From a virus: DNA of 64,000 bases. The notes beneath the pieces were generated by a model. It searched no databases and was not told where the DNA came from. It worked only from the letters and a program-made list of their open reading frames with translations. The stretch lies in the IMG/VR virus record IMGVR_UViG_3300006990_000014. The stretch is one strand, 5' to 3'. The translations under genes were made by a program, and so were the position numbers. Below, piece after piece: positions 12,672 through 34,120 of this stretch; positions within the stretch are counted from its first letter, which is position 1; every line of letters begins with the position of its first letter.

Positions 12672-13049
12672 ATGGAATATGATTTAGTATCAAACTTAGG
12701 CAATGCAATTGACAATGTATTTAACTATTCAAATGGTCAAGATAGTTCTAGAAAAACAGTTGCAAAACTTATTAACAATAAAGAAATGTCTATAACTTTT
12801 ATGTCTATTGTTAATGTTGCTAGAGAATCAGATTTACAAGTTCAAGTAGTTCATATAAATAAAGAATCCAATCACCACATTACAGCAAGACTCAACCGCA
12901 TAAAAAAAGAGTTTAAATCTTGTGCTGGTCGACCTTTAAAAACAAAAAAGATAGGTGAGTCAGATTCTTTTGAGGCAATAACAACAAGCTCATTTAGTCA
13001 TTTTAAAACTTACAAAGTTTGCTATACAAAGACTTTTGAGGTTTCTTAG
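12672..13049 (+). CDS. Hypothetical protein upstream of terminase
   Basis: 125-aa ORF with AAGGA SD; no recognisable motif. Confidence 0.6.
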   Translation: MEYDLVSNLGNAIDNVFNYSNGQDSSRKTVAKLINNKEMSITFMSIVNVARESDLQVQVVHINKESNHHITARLNRIKKEFKSCAGRPLKTKKIGESDSFEAITTSSFSHFKTYKVCYTKTFEVS

Positions 13050-24621: not shown

Positions 24622-27600
24622 TTAAGATAACAGCATTTTGACGTATTGTCTAATAAGTGAGTCCATTTGTAACTCTGCTTCTTCTTCTGGTGTATTTGCG
24701 CTTAAGTTTGATGCTTCATCAGGAAAAGCCATTCCCATGTGCATTCTTGCATGCTTGCCCATTTTCTGGACAATTTCAAAAGCTATTTCTTTTGAATATC
24801 GAGTGCCAAACATACTACTATTACTGTTGAATTTTCTATCTCTAAACAATTCTTTAAGCGTTTCTCTTACAATTGTGAGCTCTTTACCGTATAAACTATT
24901 ACTACCATCTTCAGATATACCGATAAAGTTTTTAAAGAAGTTTTTTATACCGTTAGCTGAATTGTAGTTTTGACCTGTAGATAATGTAGCGATTTTTTGC
25001 ATAATATCTTTAGGAAAAGCTTTGTTATTCTGAGTGAATATATTAATTAAACTATTTGTAAAGAGTGTATGTAACTCCACTTTTCCGTAATGACTTATAA
25101 CATGATTTATTTTTTTCCTCAAGGCATTTATTGTTTCATCACTTCCTATTATTTCCATATCAATCTTTTGAATTGCGTTTGTTGCTAAACTTCTTTCATG
25201 TGTTGATTCATAGTTGGTGTTGTCTCTAGAAAATAATTGTTCTACAAATTGACTAAAATAAACTTTTCTTTTTTCCATAGGTATAAAATCTAAAAATGTC
25301 AATATTAAAAACGTAAATTTTGGTATTTGAAGTCTATGCAAAGAATAGTAATTGTCAATAAAGTTTGATGACTTTACAAATATTTTAGATTTATTTTGAA
25401 TATGGTTTATAACGTTATCAATATTTCTTTTGCCTCGCAGAATACTTATACGAGCTTTATGAAAAGTTTTAGTAATAATAAACGCTCTCAAACTATCAGG
25501 CAAAGTTTTAAATATTTCATATGCATATTCAAAGTCAAAGTCTCTCGTTGCGTTGTCTAATATAACTGTTTCAAAAAACGATTGACAAGTCGCTGTGTCT
25601 GCTAATTCATCATTGTTATATGATCTATCAATATGATCAGCAATATTTTTTAGAGTTTTTGTGTTTAAGTCAGTAGCGTTTTTCTTGTATGCACTTAAGA
25701 ATGTTATAAAGTTTGCAAAATAGTCATTACTTTTAAAAACGTCTTTGTACGAAGTTAAATCATTAAATATGTCAAATTCATCTTGATTATAAGACACATT
25801 AAGTGGATTACCTTTTTCGATATTGCTACCAATTAGTCTGTATAGCACATAAGCATCTCTACTTCCTAAATAGTCTTTTATTAGTCTAAAAGTTTTGTAT
25901 TCTGTTAATACATTTTCTTTTATTTCTTGATAAGCATTTTTGTCAAGACTTAAAAATCTTCTTTCGTCGTTGCTTTCTTCGCTTAGGTATTCACTTGGCT
26001 TTGCACTTGCATCTTTAATAATATATCTTGTCACAAGACTTAAATCGATACTTACTATTAAATCTTCACTTGAGTCTTCACTTTTTTCTTGTAGATTATT
26101 AACAAATATCTCAGGATATCTAAAAATTAAATGTGAGATAAATACATCAGGTCTAAACGATCTCCCAGAGGATAAACCTCCTGTAATTTTATTTAGTGAA
26201 TTCGTTCCAAATTCTGAAATGTAAGATTTTATTCCTTGCGATTTCATTATCATGTCATATATTTCTATGTTTTGCTTTGTAAGACCTGCTGATTTATTTT
26301 GAACTTTATAGGGATTTAAATATGAACTGTACTCATCACTATCTAGCGCTAGCTTTATTATTCTTTTTAAGTTATTTGCGTTGTTTGTATTACATGCAAT
26401 GCCTAAGGCACTTTTAAACTCATTAAAGTTGAGTTGCTTAAAACTATAAACAGACGTCGTTTTTTTTTGAATTTCTGCAAAAGCATTAAAATATCTTGGG
26501 TGAGATCTTTGATTTAGTATTTTATTTTTTAAATTATTATAAATTTCTTCTCTAGGATACATGCCCTGAGTAAGGAAAAAGTCAGTAAAATACAGCGTCT
26601 CAGCGTCTAAATTATCAAATATATAATAAGCTACACTATCAACAATTACTTCAGCTGCATCTTCTTTAGAGAGCTGTGTTTCTGTGCACATTAACTCATA
26701 TAATCCCATAGTCTGTTCAACACCTGAGAATGCGAGTGATTGTGAAAAACAATTTTTTAATTCGTTGACATCGTTAAGTTTACTAAGTCCTATTACATTA
26801 TCTTCAATCTCAGAAATGTTTGATTGCAAGCTAACTTGTTCTGGCAGATTTGAAATTTCTGTTTTCATTTCATTTGTTATGTATTCATCCAGAAATTCGT
26901 CATCAACGTGATTATTGTGAAAGTCGCAAGTTCCTTCTACATCAATGGTTCCGTCTTTTCGTACTTTAAGGCTAATTGCATAAGCGTCTTCGCCAAAGCC
27001 ATCTTTTTTTGAATGGGCAACTGCTACATACTGACTTGAATTATAACTGCTCCAAGTTGATTCGCTTCTATACGTGCACCAAGTTAATTCGCTCGCTCCT
27101 AATACACTTCCAAGCATATGTTTGAATGCTTTGTAATTTGTTGGATAAACAATTAACATATCATCGTCTTCATATACTTTTAACAATGATTCAGACAACA
27201 TTTTCCCAACTGCAGCTATCTTTTTATAGCCTTTTGCAAATGTCATTCTTTTCATTATGATATTAAAGTCAAAGTTTCCCTTTTCGATCTCATCTTTTTC
27301 TTCTTTTCTTGCAATGTCATAATAAACACGCATATAAAGATCAGCAGCTTTAATACAAGTATCAATATCTACGTCAACAGATTTTTCAATATATTGTATT
27401 ATGCTGTCAAACATTGGAAGAACTTTTTTAAATTCGATAAACTCACCGTCAGAATTTTTATGTTTCCTAAGCTGTTTAATTAAAATTTCTTCTGCTTCTT
27501 TGAGTTTGCTTTTGTTTTCTTTTCCTTTAAGCTCTAGCAGTTTTGTTACATGTACTATTTTTATAATTTCTAAAGCAATGTTTTTCTCTTTTACAGAAGT

Positions 27601-27990
27601 TGCCTCGTAAAGTTCAAGTTGATATTCCTTTTCTTTCTCAGATAGTGTAATTGGTGTTAAGTCTTTTTCGTTTACTTTAATACCTTTACTTTTTCTAATA
27701 TCAACACTTTTTTGTCTATCTTTCTCTTTTGACTCATATTCAGCTTTTAATTTATATAAAAACTCATTTGTTTGCATCGCTGTCAAATATTTTCTTTTTT
27801 TATATAAATTATCATCTATTTTGTCGAAAGCTTCTTCTACAGAACTTATTGTAGGATCGCCAATTAATTGAGGTTTTTCTTTGCAGAGTTTTATTACTTT
27901 TTCTAAAAAGTTTTTAGGTGTTATTAGTGCCATTTCATTTAATAAAGCACTATTTTTATAAAAAACTTGTTTTAAAGAATATTTTGTCAT
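24622..27990 (-). CDS. Large hypothetical protein (1122 aa), possible head-packaged internal protein with a WCT-motif domain
   Basis: Long uninterrupted ORF; VYEDDDMLIVYPTNYKAF...ELTWCTY motif; N-terminal ...LLNE and C-terminal LIRQYVKMLL helices. Confidence 0.75.
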   Translation of the reverse strand: MTKYSLKQVFYKNSALLNEMALITPKNFLEKVIKLCKEKPQLIGDPTISSVEEAFDKIDDNLYKKRKYLTAMQTNEFLYKLKAEYESKEKDRQKSVDIRKSKGIKVNEKDLTPITLSEKEKEYQLELYEATSVKEKNIALEIIKIVHVTKLLELKGKENKSKLKEAEEILIKQLRKHKNSDGEFIEFKKVLPMFDSIIQYIEKSVDVDIDTCIKAADLYMRVYYDIARKEEKDEIEKGNFDFNIIMKRMTFAKGYKKIAAVGKMLSESLLKVYEDDDMLIVYPTNYKAFKHMLGSVLGASELTWCTYRSESTWSSYNSSQYVAVAHSKKDGFGEDAYAISLKVRKDGTIDVEGTCDFHNNHVDDEFLDEYITNEMKTEISNLPEQVSLQSNISEIEDNVIGLSKLNDVNELKNCFSQSLAFSGVEQTMGLYELMCTETQLSKEDAAEVIVDSVAYYIFDNLDAETLYFTDFFLTQGMYPREEIYNNLKNKILNQRSHPRYFNAFAEIQKKTTSVYSFKQLNFNEFKSALGIACNTNNANNLKRIIKLALDSDEYSSYLNPYKVQNKSAGLTKQNIEIYDMIMKSQGIKSYISEFGTNSLNKITGGLSSGRSFRPDVFISHLIFRYPEIFVNNLQEKSEDSSEDLIVSIDLSLVTRYIIKDASAKPSEYLSEESNDERRFLSLDKNAYQEIKENVLTEYKTFRLIKDYLGSRDAYVLYRLIGSNIEKGNPLNVSYNQDEFDIFNDLTSYKDVFKSNDYFANFITFLSAYKKNATDLNTKTLKNIADHIDRSYNNDELADTATCQSFFETVILDNATRDFDFEYAYEIFKTLPDSLRAFIITKTFHKARISILRGKRNIDNVINHIQNKSKIFVKSSNFIDNYYSLHRLQIPKFTFLILTFLDFIPMEKRKVYFSQFVEQLFSRDNTNYESTHERSLATNAIQKIDMEIIGSDETINALRKKINHVISHYGKVELHTLFTNSLINIFTQNNKAFPKDIMQKIATLSTGQNYNSANGIKNFFKNFIGISEDGSNSLYGKELTIVRETLKELFRDRKFNSNSSMFGTRYSKEIAFEIVQKMGKHARMHMGMAFPDEASNLSANTPEEEAELQMDSLIRQYVKMLLS

Positions 27991-29530: not shown

Positions 29531-29854
29531 ATGTGGTATGTTTACGTTTTGTTATGTGCTGATAATTCTCTTTACTGCGGTATAACTACAAATCTTCAAA
29601 AAAGATTAAAGCAGCATAACGGAGAGATCAAAGGAGGCGCCAAATATACTAGGGGAAGAGGACCTCATCGAATTGTGTATATAAAAAAAGCGATGAATCG
29701 CTCCATCGCTTCTAAGTTAGAATATCAATTTAAGCAGCTAAGCCGCAGAAAGAAAATTGATTATCTTATTCGTCACCCTCTGCCTCAGGATCTTCTTCAG
29801 ACTGCTCGCCAGCAGGAACTTCCTCTTCTCCCCCTACAGGATCTTCTTCAGTAG
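29531..29854 (+). CDS. Stand-alone GIY-YIG nuclease (UPF0213/SLX1-like)
   Basis: WYVYVLLCADNSLYCGITTNLQKRLKQHNG...GAKYTRGR...ASKLEYQFK. Confidence 0.88.
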   Translation: MWYVYVLLCADNSLYCGITTNLQKRLKQHNGEIKGGAKYTRGRGPHRIVYIKKAMNRSIASKLEYQFKQLSRRKKIDYLIRHPLPQDLLQTARQQELPLLPLQDLLQ

Positions 29855-30173
29855 ATTCTTCACCAGCAGGAACCTCCATATCAGCCTCTTCACCAGCAGG
29901 AACCTCCATATCAGCCTCTTCACCAGCAGGAACCTCTTCAGGAACCTCCATGTCCAAATCATCAGGCATCTCTTCACCAGCAGGCGGTGCCTCAGGAAGT
30001 TCCTCGCAAGGCATTTCTTGAGGTGCCTCTTCACAAGTCTCATCTTCAGAAACTACACACTCTACTACTTGGCCGGCTTGAGGTTCTTCTTCTGTTTCAT
30101 CATCATCACATCCTGCAAAAAACGCAAACATTGAAACTAAAAGGGCTAAAACAATTGTTCTAATTCTTGACAT
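29766..30173 (-). CDS. Acidic Pro/Glu-rich lipoprotein with repeats
   Basis: Signal MSRIRTIVLALLVSMFAFFAG-C (lipobox-like) followed by DDD; EVPAGEEADM repeats; AAGGAG SD on minus strand. Confidence 0.75.
   Translation of the reverse strand: MSRIRTIVLALLVSMFAFFAGCDDDETEEEPQAGQVVECVVSEDETCEEAPQEMPCEELPEAPPAGEEMPDDLDMEVPEEVPAGEEADMEVPAGEEADMEVPAGEESTEEDPVGGEEEVPAGEQSEEDPEAEGDE
29857..29935 (-). repeat. 30-bp tandem repeat, about 2.6 copies (EVPAGEEADM)
   Basis: TCTTCACCAGCAGGAACCTCCATATCAGCC repeated at 29857, 29887 and partially 29917. Confidence 0.9.
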
Positions 30174-31511: not shown

Positions 31512-31733
31512 ATGAGATTAAGCCCAAGAATGTTAAGAAGAATGATTATGCAAGAAATGCGTAACCTTGAGAGAAGTAGACTTGTAGAAGGAACTACTGA
31601 AAGACCTGTAAGAATTACAGCAGAATATCTTAACAGAGTTATCAAAGAAGAGTATGCAGCGCATCAAAAACAACAGCGTCTAGCAGAAGCTAGAAGCCGG
31701 CGCCGAAGAGCTAGAAGCTCTTATTACTACTAA
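31512..31733 (+). CDS. Small basic protein with two L-x-x-(M/V)-I-x-E helices
   Basis: AGGAG SD; LSPRMLRRMIMQE and ITAEYLNRVIKEE; Arg-rich C-terminus. Confidence 0.65.
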   Translation: MRLSPRMLRRMIMQEMRNLERSRLVEGTTERPVRITAEYLNRVIKEEYAAHQKQQRLAEARSRRRRARSSYYY

Positions 31734-31837: not shown

Positions 31838-32098
31838 ATGCAATTATCACCAGAACAAGTTCAATCAATAAATATTCTTCTCTCGGCAGTACAAGTAGCG
31901 CAACGACGAGGAGCCTTTTCTTTGCAAGATGCTTCAACATTGCAAGAAGCAATTGATCGACTAGTACCTCGTGAAGAGCAAGAGAGACAAGCAGCAGAGG
32001 CACAAGCTGCCGATGCGAGTGGCGATGAGGCTGAAGCAGTAAGTATGCCTGAGTCTGACGAGGTTGTTGATGCAGAACCTGCCGGTGACTCTGAGTAA
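31838..32098 (+). CDS. Hypothetical protein
   Basis: AAGGA SD; helical N-terminus INILLSAVQVAQRRGAFSLQDA, acidic tail. Confidence 0.7.
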   Translation: MQLSPEQVQSINILLSAVQVAQRRGAFSLQDASTLQEAIDRLVPREEQERQAAEAQAADASGDEAEAVSMPESDEVVDAEPAGDSE

Positions 32099-32135: not shown

Positions 32136-32164
32136 AAGGTGCACGTAAAAAATGCACCTTTTTT
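32136..32164 (+). terminator. Rho-independent terminator
   Basis: AAGGTGCA-9 nt-TGCACCTT followed by TTTT. Confidence 0.8.
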
Positions 32165-32180
32165 GTAATATATAGCATTA

Positions 32181-32259
32181 GGCCCGATGCAAACATAACA
32201 GCTGACCCCGCCAGTGCATCGGAATCATGCGGACAAGTTTATCCGAAAAGGAGGAAGTT
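32181..32259 (+). promoter_or_regulatory. Candidate structured 5' leader RNA (cis-regulatory)
   Basis: 36 of 65 nt G+C in an AT-rich genome; perfect 8-bp stem CCGATGCA/TGCATCGG, inner CTG/CAG stem, CGGA/TCCG hairpin abutting the AAGGAGG SD. Confidence 0.55.
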
Positions 32260-32769
32260 ATGCCAAGTGTAGAATATACGCAAGTAAAAGGGTTAGTGCA
32301 AAAGTCATCGACAGATGCTGCTCTAGACTTGCGTGGTGAATTATCAGGATTTAGAAAAAAAATTGTGCCAATATCAGCAGCAGCTAATACTTTAAAAAAT
32401 GAAGATTCAGGAAAAGTTTTTCTTGTTACTCATAACGCAGATAACGATATTGATATAACATTACCAGCTGCCCCTGAAACAGGTGTTAAATATAGAGTTA
32501 TAACTGCTATAGATGTTGCAGCAGGAAAAACAATAGAAGTAATCCAAGGTGATGGTGCTCACGATTTTGCTGGAACTTTATATCAAGGAGGCGCAGCAGT
32601 TGATAGAGCAAATTTAGCTGTTAACAATGACCCAGAAGATGATTCGAAAATTCGGTTTGTAGCAGACACAGCCAAAGCAGGAGATTTTATTGAGCTATTT
32701 TACACAGGCTCAAAATGGTCAGTTCAAGGCGTAAGCCAAGCAGCTGGCGGATTAATATTTGTAGTATAA
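32260..32769 (+). CDS. Putative virion decoration/fibre protein, paralog 1
   Basis: AAGGAGG SD before ATG 32260; MPSVEYTQVKGLVQKS, LKNEDSGKVFLV, ITLPAAP, AGDFIELFYTGSKW. Confidence 0.65.
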   Translation: MPSVEYTQVKGLVQKSSTDAALDLRGELSGFRKKIVPISAAANTLKNEDSGKVFLVTHNADNDIDITLPAAPETGVKYRVITAIDVAAGKTIEVIQGDGAHDFAGTLYQGGAAVDRANLAVNNDPEDDSKIRFVADTAKAGDFIELFYTGSKWSVQGVSQAAGGLIFVV

Positions 32770-32799
32770 TTTAATATAAAAATAAAAAGGAAAAATAAT

Positions 32800-33735
32800 A
32801 TGCCAAGCGTAGAATATACAAAAGAAAAAGGTTTAGTTCAAAAATCATCAACATCTTCATCACTTGATCTTCGTGGTGAGTTATCAGGTCATCGTCAAGC
32901 TGTTCGAACATTAGCAACTGCAACAGAACAACTATCTGTTGCTGACAGTGGAAAAGAATTGCTTTTAGGCGCAAACGTCAGATCAGTTTTACTTCCTGCA
33001 GTTGCTGGAGTTAGAACATCTGTAAAATTTACAGCTGCTAATGGACCATTTACTGTAAATGAAGTATTTACATTTGAAGGATTTGGTAGGAAATTTAAAC
33101 TAAAAGTCGTTGCAGACGCTGCTGACGCTAACAACGGTAAATTAGTTTCAACAGATTCGTCTGGAGTAAGTACATTTCAGCTCGAGCGAGGCCTTGATAT
33201 CGACGGAGCAATTACAAATTTGCATACTTTGCTAGGAACAGGCGCAAACGATTTCTCTCCTTTGAGTGGAGTAGCTGTGCAAGCTGTTCAAGGTGGAACT
33301 AATTTTCAAATTGACTCAACTTTACCTGGAAATAGAAACGGAGTACTTGTAGATAAAGACGAAGCTGCACTAACAACTGCAGGTGTAATTGCTACAAACT
33401 TAACTGCTAATATTATTCCTAATCAAGGACAAGATGCAATTGCTGATGCTTCTGGTTTAAGAATTAGATTGGTAGCAGCTGCTATTGATGGAAATATTGT
33501 TGTAGAAATTCCAAAAGATGACGCGCTAGCTGCCCGAGACGAAGGCTCTCTGGTTGGTACAGTTCTTAATGCAGGAGGAGTAGAGGAAGTATCAGGTGAT
33601 GCTATGACAATTGTAAATGCTCACGACACTGCAGGAGACTTTTTTGAGCTTCTATGTGATGGAGCTGCAGCACCAAAATGGTATGTTAGCGGAGCAATTC
33701 AGTCAGCTAATGGCGCTGCGTTAACATTTGCATAA
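32800..33735 (+). CDS. Putative virion decoration/fibre protein, paralog 2 with inserted domain
   Basis: MPSVEYTKEKGLVQKS, LSVADSGKELLL, AGDFFELLCDG...KW shared with paralog 1; central insertion. Confidence 0.65.
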   Translation: MPSVEYTKEKGLVQKSSTSSSLDLRGELSGHRQAVRTLATATEQLSVADSGKELLLGANVRSVLLPAVAGVRTSVKFTAANGPFTVNEVFTFEGFGRKFKLKVVADAADANNGKLVSTDSSGVSTFQLERGLDIDGAITNLHTLLGTGANDFSPLSGVAVQAVQGGTNFQIDSTLPGNRNGVLVDKDEAALTTAGVIATNLTANIIPNQGQDAIADASGLRIRLVAAAIDGNIVVEIPKDDALAARDEGSLVGTVLNAGGVEEVSGDAMTIVNAHDTAGDFFELLCDGAAAPKWYVSGAIQSANGAALTFA

Positions 33736-33754
33736 TTTAAAGGAGTAAACTAAA

Positions 33755-34120
33755 ATGTCGAGAGCTAAAAAATCAGAAGAAGATAAAAAGGTTAATTTAG
33801 AAAAACCAGATGAGAAACCTGCTTCTAAGAAGACAGAAGCTAAGCCTGCGCCTAAAAAAGCAGAAGCTAAGCCTGCTCCTAAAAAAGCAGAAGCTAAGCC
33901 TGCGCCTAAAAAAGCAGCTGTAAAAAGCGTTGCTTCTTCAAGCTTGAAAGTTTCTGCTGGTGATTGCGTTCAAAATAATTTAAGAGATGGATTAAAAGGT
34001 AGAGTTTTAAGCTTTAAATCTAACGAGCAAGGGTTTGCAACAAAATTAACTGTATCGTGGGAAAATGGTTTGCAATATGCAATTTCATACTTAAACGTTT
34101 CTGTTTGTAAAAAATGTTAA
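33755..34120 (+). CDS. Lys/Ala/Pro-repeat (histone-H1-like) protein with small C-terminal beta domain
   Basis: AGGAG SD; (EAKPAPKKA)x3. Confidence 0.65.
   Translation: MSRAKKSEEDKKVNLEKPDEKPASKKTEAKPAPKKAEAKPAPKKAEAKPAPKKAAVKSVASSSLKVSAGDCVQNNLRDGLKGRVLSFKSNEQGFATKLTVSWENGLQYAISYLNVSVCKKC
33834..33917 (+). repeat. 27-bp tandem repeat x3
   Basis: CAGAAGCTAAGCCTGC(G/T)CCTAAAAAAG at 33834, 33861, 33888. Confidence 0.9.

Follow-up and report, generated by a model that had tools for sequence, protein, structure and literature searches.

A pseudoknotted RNA with covarying helices in the leader of a hypervariable, spike-like virion gene cluster of marine T4-like phages

In phage T4, a pseudoknot in the gene 32 mRNA nucleates cooperative binding of gp32 along an unstructured tract, without pairing of the start codon (PMC3014915). 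At other structured T4 start sites the late promoter lies inside the structure, and late transcripts thereby escape masking (PMC3014915). Ribozymes like that of hepatitis delta virus (HDV), a class defined by a catalytic cytosine at the first position of J4/2, occur in phages as well, including the phage theta ribozymes (PMC10879173). A survey of pelagimyophages reported no riboswitches (PMC7029224). Here we describe a short RNA motif, widespread in ocean metagenomes, which combines three covarying helices with a fourth long-range pairing. We studied it in 64,000 nucleotides (nt) of viral DNA from the IMG/VR record IMGVR_UViG_3300006990_000014 (this whole stretch is called the window), where it lies in the leader of a cluster of small virion genes. 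Only a small number of structured regulatory RNAs have been described in phages and, to our knowledge, none on the late virion genes of marine T4-like phages. The motif may be among the 10,006 unnamed IMG/VR candidate RNAs of Fremin et al. 2023 (PMC10690425).

The structured core comprises 57 nt (32180–32236) with a G+C content of 0.56. Its G–U pairs assign the fold to the + strand, the sense strand of the genes, and all coordinates below refer to this strand unless stated otherwise. The core starts with an unpaired 5′ tail, AGGC (32180–32183), which reads A-R-G-C in all homologues; its A1, G3 and C4 are invariant in 89 sequences, and a pairing partner for it was sought but not found. The tail is followed by the first strand of helix P1, CCGAUGC (32184–32190), which pairs with GCAUCGG (32216–32222), and by an internal loop, J1/2 (32191–32200). 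Helix P2 then pairs GCUG (32201–32204) with CAGU (32212–32215) and closes the loop L2, ACCCCGC (32205–32211). The last four bases of this loop, CCGC (32208–32211), form a pseudoknot with GCGG (32229–32232), across a linker, AAUCAU (32223–32228), that is conserved as A-A-N-C-N-U in invariant or near-invariant columns.

P1 and P2 both appear when the sequence is folded alone, but the folding energy is not significant (z = −1.45), so the case for an RNA rests on comparative evidence. The covariation figures come from 89 distinct cores in one alignment, with the structure specified by us. In this alignment, 98.5% of the cells are paired, compared with 84% in shuffles and 25–42% with slid partners. 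Eleven of the 15 pairs change on both sides, and none of 500 shuffles attained the covariation score. In P1 (7 bp; 99% of cells paired), six of the seven pairs change on both sides, giving variants such as CCGAUUC/GAAUCGG, CCGAACC/GGUUCGG, CCAAUCC/GGAUUGG, CUAGUGC/GCACUAG, CCUCGUC/GACGAGG and CCACGUU/AACGUGG. In an RNA library, too, we observed a double compensatory change: a metatranscriptome contig from a related phage has C>T and G>A in one P1 strand (32185/32186), balanced by C>T and G>A in the opposite strand (32220/32221). An earlier note on this DNA had described P1 as eight perfect pairs. Seven of these covary, while the eighth (A32191–U32215) is not conserved, as U32215 belongs to P2, where it pairs with G32201 (G–C in 54 sequences, A–U in 13, G–U in 13 and U–A in one). 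The P2 of that note, CTG/CAG closing the loop ACCCCGC, covaries as well and gains this fourth pair. Three of its four pairs change on both sides (GCUG/CAGU, UCUG/CAGA, ACCG/CGGU and GGCG/CGUC).

The pseudoknot, which had also been proposed, is paired in 100% of the 89 sequences, with covariation at two of its four pairs. At the one pseudoknot base left free by our search pattern, G–C is found in 59 sequences and A–U in 30, with no mismatch, and the A–U state exists on at least five backgrounds. The first pseudoknot pair is C–G in 86 cores and U–A in three; the U–A state is seen in the L074 type and in L230 (L-numbers are our labels for the individual loci or contigs compared), and a third state, G–C, is found in L234. 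L041 and L191 differ solely by a double pseudoknot change from G–C to A–U, and L025 and L028 by such a double change plus one other base. Covariation in homologous loci, which the earlier note had named as a check, is therefore seen in P1, P2 and the pseudoknot. On this comparative evidence, 32180–32236 is a real structured RNA, and the covariation shows these 57 nt as a predicted coaxial P1–P2 hairpin whose terminal loop is paired with the 3′ tail.

The fourth pairing, named helix X, extends from J1/2 to the start codon. Its 5′ strand, CAUAAC (32194–32199), is complementary to GUUAUG (32257–32262), which includes the start codon (32260–32262) of the gene for a 169-residue protein. About ten distinct complementary solutions occur among the homologues, for example CAUAAC/GUUAUG in the window, UAUAAC/GUUAUA in L025, AUAAUC/GAUUAU in L024, GCAUAA/UUAUGC in the L018 clade, GCAUAAU/AUUAUGC in L143, CCAUAA/UUAUGG in L130, GUGAUC/GAUCAC in L112, GUGAUUU/AAAUCAC in L186 and CAUGAU/AUCAUG in L074. 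We assessed helix X by a run-length statistic, the number of contiguous Watson–Crick pairs, instead of column-wise covariation. At least six contiguous pairs are present in 81% of 58 distinct loop/start-site combinations, compared with 2.8% when the loop is shuffled and 20% when start sites of other lineages are used. The pairing stays with the start codon in phages whose first gene is spike-like (AUGCC) as in those where it is K-rich (AUGGC), and at spacer lengths of 18 as well as 43 nt. The comparisons show J1/2 pairing, in the predicted fold, with six nucleotides that include or abut the start codon, which closes a nested double pseudoknot.

The strong Shine–Dalgarno (SD) sequence, recognised by its letters, is AAGGAGG (32248–32254), upstream of the ATG at 32260. 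In an anti-SD mini-hairpin (32242–32252), UCC (32242–32244) pairs with GGA (32250–32252) of the SD, and relatives have UCAC/GUGA, UCAU/GUGA, CUC/GAG or CUCU/GGAG instead. This weak helix is found in long-spacer forms and is absent at spacers of 18–22 nt. In the short-spacer forms, the SD comes 3–7 nt after the pseudoknot, within a loop of 12–14 nt between two helices. The earlier note had proposed that a hairpin CGGA/UCCG (32230–32233/32242–32245) and the pseudoknot are mutually exclusive. The hairpin is present in the window (−4.0 kcal/mol) but is not conserved, since most relatives have UCCU or UCAC in place of UCCG, or no such strand in the forms with 18–22-nt spacers. We found no conserved, mutually exclusive alternative to the fold among the homologues, in which the start codon and SD pairings are kept. 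Of the idea of a new cis-regulatory RNA in a virion-gene leader, the part that stands is a covarying, +-strand structured RNA in the 5′ leader without an Rfam match; the proposed switch does not. In L018 (2440–2480), L125 and L170, the 3′ strand of P1, GUGUC, can pair with GACAC after the pseudoknot, ahead of U5–U7. This terminator-like alternative (GUGUC...GACAC plus U7) was rejected as a general platform, being weak and confined to one sub-clade.

The motif had not been matched to any known RNA, and no Rfam 15 family matches the 64 kb at gathering thresholds; at E ≤ 10, no match overlaps the motif in the window or in six diverged homologues. A covariance model gives one match in the window (79.9 bits; the next scores 8.5), in line with the earlier remark that no other structural gene here has such a leader. 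Other late genes of the window preceded by an ATATATA box have short, AT-rich and unstructured leaders. By pattern scans, the core was located in 36 IMG/VR contigs and in at least 120 marine metagenome contigs. When loci were retrieved independently of the motif, through the upstream gene for an 86-residue protein, the leader was present in all 24, strongly diverged versions included. The covariance model, too, detects the leader wherever a gp13-anchored locus extends far enough upstream, with scores between 82 and 34 bits. Each phage contig has a single copy, as does a complete genome of 239.5 kb with terminal repeats. The element always follows a terminator and an ATATATA box and precedes the first gene of the spike-like cluster, upstream of gp13, gp14 and gp15. 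The core is 93–100% identical to that of the window, while the neighbouring genes are 45–77% identical at the DNA level. Because it is near-invariant, the motif can be used as a marker of this uncultured phage lineage. Eleven further pattern matches lie in unrelated bacteria, mostly of high G+C content, but none has the AGGCC tail or the 5′ half; nine fail the P1 test, and L211 and L214 pass it by chance in unrelated sequence. We rejected them all as chance matches.

The intergenic region extends from the stop of the 86-residue gene (32098) to the ATG at 32260. It contains the terminator, the ATATATA motif, the G+C-rich stretch with its stems and the SD, all where the earlier note had placed them. 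The intrinsic terminator of the 86-residue gene (32136–32164) was read from its sequence, a stem AAGGTGCA/TGCACCTT followed by a T-run; a scan lists it on the opposite strand, and it is co-conserved with the cassette in many loci. It is followed by a promoter-like box, TAATATATAG (32166–32175). Many structural genes of the window are preceded by an ATATATA(A/G) box at a distance of 25–45 nt. We therefore read this one as a probable late promoter, and ATATATA(A/G) is probably the late promoter consensus of this phage group. The box is kept upstream of the motif in the homologues. In the window it precedes the starts at 2406, 19474, 20957, 22534, 30274, 31512, 34272, 40802 and 45845. The T4 late promoter, TATAAATA, which is unlike ATATATA(A/G), is present at 12672 and 18108. 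Transcription would begin about 5 nt 3′ of TAATATATAG, at or near A32180.

The window carries the morphogenesis module of a T4-like myovirus, with terminase, gp20 portal and gp23 capsid protein genes upstream of the leader and gp13-like, gp15 and sheath genes downstream. No close cultured relative was found: the best gp13 match is only 34% identical, and blastn searches of the locus and of the leader against cultured phage genomes gave no real DNA match. Directly downstream of the leader, 32260–33735 encodes two paralogous small spike- or fibre-like virion proteins of 169 and 311 residues, with the N-terminal arm MPSVEYT..KGLVQKSS. The 169-residue protein gave an AlphaFold2 model with a predicted local distance difference test (pLDDT) score of 79, for which Foldseek matches include the Pa223 capsid spike, the N-terminus of CBA120 TSP4, T4 gp9/gp10-type proteins and the N-terminal domain of Mtd. 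As the modelled fold resembles spike- and fibre-anchoring domains, the proteins of the cluster are probably small surface spikes or fibres. Pfam and PHROGs assign no family to the small proteins downstream and upstream of the leader. The 169-residue protein has 11 relatives, down to 35% identity, with the same gene order on their contigs, and the leader is almost unchanged upstream of relatives whose protein is 41–50% identical. A protein-pattern scan of IMG/VR with this protein found nothing.

The leader always stands at the head of a cluster whose far end is gp13. This cluster consists of one to three paralogues, which have the arm MPxVxYxxxKGLVQ in common but vary strongly in their bodies, and of a basic protein rich in lysine, proline and alanine (33755–34120 in the window) that comes before or after the paralogues depending on the phage. 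Gene number, order and sequence differ even between close phages, so that the cluster can be called hypervariable. The paralogues (32260–34120 in the window, and those in L022, L027, L049 and L050) share only the N-terminal arm and a C-terminal AGDFxEL..KW motif, and the 311-residue paralogue carries an insertion of about 140 residues. Two small conserved genes always lie just upstream of the leader in this clade. One (31512–31733) encodes an Arg-rich protein of 73 residues and has its own ATATATA box; the other (31838–32098) encodes the 86-residue protein, which has an acidic tail. Both proteins are candidate RNA-binding partners. In L034, the Arg-rich type is represented instead by three downstream paralogues. 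The structural module is otherwise co-directional, but an open reading frame (ORF) of 1122 residues on the minus strand (24622–27990), for which no Pfam family was found, interrupts it between gp23 and the leader region. Another minus-strand ORF (29766–30173; 135 residues) has a lipoprotein-type signal (…FFAGC) followed by acidic repeats (EEADMEVPAGE) and looks like a phage-encoded acidic lipoprotein. A 107-residue ORF at 29531–29854 begins MWYVYVLLC..LYCGIT and looks like a small protein that we take to be of the GIY-YIG nuclease family.

We think it probable, though not strongly so, that this RNA acts in cis as an operator, placed at the extreme 5′ end of a late phage mRNA, where it would control translation. 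If the transcript begins near 32180, as the position of the box suggests, the fold would occupy the very 5′ end of the message. The closed double pseudoknot would place the SD in a connecting loop and hinder binding of the 30S subunit, and the anti-SD hairpin would further cover the SD in most lineages. The SD of the short-spacer forms, confined to 12–14 nt between helices, should be inaccessible in the folded state. Expression would then need an opening of the fold, brought about by the ribosome itself or by an effector that acts on the unpaired, invariant bases. These strictly conserved bases (the ARGC tail, the first loop A, the AANCNUG linker and the AC after the pseudoknot) might form a tertiary core, to which a small ligand, or else a conserved protein of phage or host, may bind and shift the equilibrium. 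The 89 cores have covarying helices and invariant junction bases, as do conserved riboswitch aptamers in general. Within the operator reading, we assign somewhat less than half of the weight to switching by an effector, ligand and protein being about equally plausible, and a minor share to a fixed attenuator opened by the ribosome. In either case the closed fold would set or switch translation of the first cistron, and hence the fate of the operon mRNA for hypervariable, spike-like virion proteins.

Several observations weigh against this proposal. The first cistron differs between phages, which disfavours control of one particular protein and fits a role at the level of the operon, such as mRNA stability. 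The gene context points to no ligand or binding protein. Helix X is AU-rich and weak (−6.1 kcal/mol in the window), has only 3–4 bp in L052, L091 and L102, and lies just 5′ of the AUG in L112 and L186; a column-wise covariation test is impossible for it because its register slides by 1–2 nt between types. Metatranscriptome contigs cover the leader, but as they extend through the terminator into the upstream gene, they reveal no 5′ end and may reflect DNA carry-over. In addition, most homologues were gathered with a pattern that fixes 18 core bases and inflates the apparent conservation of those positions, a bias that does not touch P1, P2, the loop, the start site or the variable pseudoknot base.

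An operon-level role in mRNA stability or coupling is a serious alternative to translational control. In its simplest form, the element would be a constitutive, non-regulatory 5′-terminal fold that shields the late operon mRNA from RNases acting from the 5′ end, with the contact to the start codon merely compacting the leader. The structure starts about 4 nt from the presumed 5′ end, and the non-conserved first cistron indicates that the element is tied to the operon as a whole and not to an individual gene. Moreover, the T4 gene 32 mRNA with its 5′ pseudoknot is the most stable T4 message (PMC3014915). However, known stabilisers are simple hairpins, and a protective fold would have no need of features that are kept here, namely the invariant unpaired bases and the pairings of helix X and the anti-SD strand, maintained through many solutions and spacer lengths. 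We regard pure protection as possible but improbable.

An HDV-like self-cleaving ribozyme, which would remove the AGGC 5′ tag and leave an mRNA with a 5′-OH, is quite unlikely, in spite of the shared topology. The strand order of the element (P1a, Xa, P2a, loop, P2b, P1b, linker, PKb, optional hairpin, Xb; PK is the pseudoknot) is exactly that of HDV-like ribozymes (P1, P2, P3, L3, P3′, P1′, P1.1, (P4), P2′), including the nested double pseudoknot. The P2 of the element corresponds to HDV P3, helix X to HDV P2 and the loop–tail pseudoknot to P1.1. Both have a 7-bp P1 and a short helix with a loop of 6–7 nt that pairs 3′ of P1, and the loop ACCCCGC resembles the HDV L3 loop, UCCUCGC. In HDV-like ribozymes a G–U wobble closes P1 at the cleavage site, and a P1.1 of 2 bp directly follows P1. 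In the element, on the other hand, the first P1 pair, at the would-be cleavage site, is C–G in 88 of the 89 sequences, and a 6-nt linker separates P1 from the loop–tail helix, which has 4 bp. The region of the start codon serves as the last strand, with the SD in the P4/J4/2 position. This J4/2-equivalent segment, purine-only as GGAGGAA or GGAGAAA and otherwise GGAGAAAA, has no conserved cytosine, and the only nearby C, which follows the pseudoknot (GCGG-A-C), is missing in L050 and the L074 type. An invariant AGGC 5′ of the site would be unexpected for the class. The optional hairpin before the last strand does parallel the P4-less minimal HDV-like forms, and such ribozymes are found in phages (PMC10879173). 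As judged from sequence, the HDV-like fold is a resemblance and not membership, since the catalytic signatures are absent; these missing signatures and the lack of any HDV-type Rfam match even at E = 10 are why we keep the ribozyme only as a rival of low probability. More speculatively, the motif could represent a new effector-sensing RNA class (riboswitch or protein-responsive operator) in which the HDV fold clamps a start codon instead of cleaving; it would then gate the production of host-facing spike proteins in abundant uncultured marine T4-like phages. Or else it could be a ribozyme of the HDV fold that has diverged in catalysis and gained a new active site. Together we regard these as a tentative possibility.

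It is very unlikely that the terminator–promoter–leader block is a recombination cassette of the PeSL type, kept identical by homologous exchange, with an incidental RNA structure. The block does border a cluster that varies in gene number, order and sequence between close phages, and the leader is often conserved together with its terminator and promoter. In T4-type phages, such shuffling is mediated by PeSL cassettes; like the block described here, they place a terminator and a promoter at the border of a hyperplastic region and are nearly identical between diverged phages (PMC2839356, PMC4122927). However, PeSLs carry early promoters and a plain stem-loop without a structured leader, whereas a late-type box here precedes a covarying, pseudoknotted RNA. 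PeSLs are repeated at several hyperplastic sites, while this element occurs once per genome, has a box of the structural-gene type and contains an additional 57-nt fold, and we rejected PeSL membership. In L010, L022 and L042, the 45 nt upstream, with promoter and terminator, are 62–64% identical, as against 93–100% for the core. In three helices, double substitutions that compensate each other occur with zero single-mutant intermediates, a pattern that exchange does not generate. The element may serve secondarily as a recombination anchor alongside an RNA function, but because of these compensatory changes such a role cannot account for the element alone.

A coding region starting at ATG 32227, giving an 11-residue N-terminal extension or an upstream ORF, which the earlier note had named as one finding that would overturn its proposal, can practically be dismissed: this ATG is in frame with the 169-residue gene in the window, but it has no SD, is out of frame in L022, L049 and L024 and is replaced by CUUG in about one-third of the homologues, so that it is not a start, and the substitutions follow the paired RNA rather than codons.

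For the operator reading, described systems provide both precedents and contrasts. Riboswitches with pseudoknots that occlude the ribosome-binding site include preQ1-II and preQ1-III, SAM-II and SAM-V, and RNAs of the ZTP topology. Like the element, these pseudoknot riboswitches are small, with conserved junction and loop bases, covarying helices and a pseudoknot beside the SD, and in the ZTP topology, too, a strand of an internal loop pairs with a distal 3′ strand across a variable linker. The element differs from them in having no Rfam match and no metabolic gene context, and in lying in a late structural operon. The T4 gene 32 operator, consisting of a 5′ pseudoknot and an AU-rich tract, resembles the element in belonging to a T4-type phage and in its proposed translational control, possibly combined with mRNA stability (PMC3014915). 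However, it precedes a gene for a single-stranded DNA-binding protein and not virion genes, and the two sequences are unrelated. We rejected an autogenous operator of the gene 32 type, as the downstream gene is spike-like or K-rich and varies between phages; simple autogenous control by the product of the first gene is for the same reason unlikely. In T4 genes e, soc, 49 and I-TevI, the SD and/or the AUG lie in an intramolecular helix, as in the element (PMC3014915). In those genes, late transcripts escape masking; here, the promoter box is upstream of the whole fold and the terminator blocks read-through, so the late transcript itself would carry the masking strand. Neither of these T4 precedents shares the architecture of the element. 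If the operator reading is true, the element would show by what means a large phage adjusts the amount or the timing of its hypervariable surface proteins. It would also be a natural example of a ribosome-binding site that has adopted a double pseudoknot of the HDV type, with a bearing on the relation between ribozyme folds and regulatory folds.
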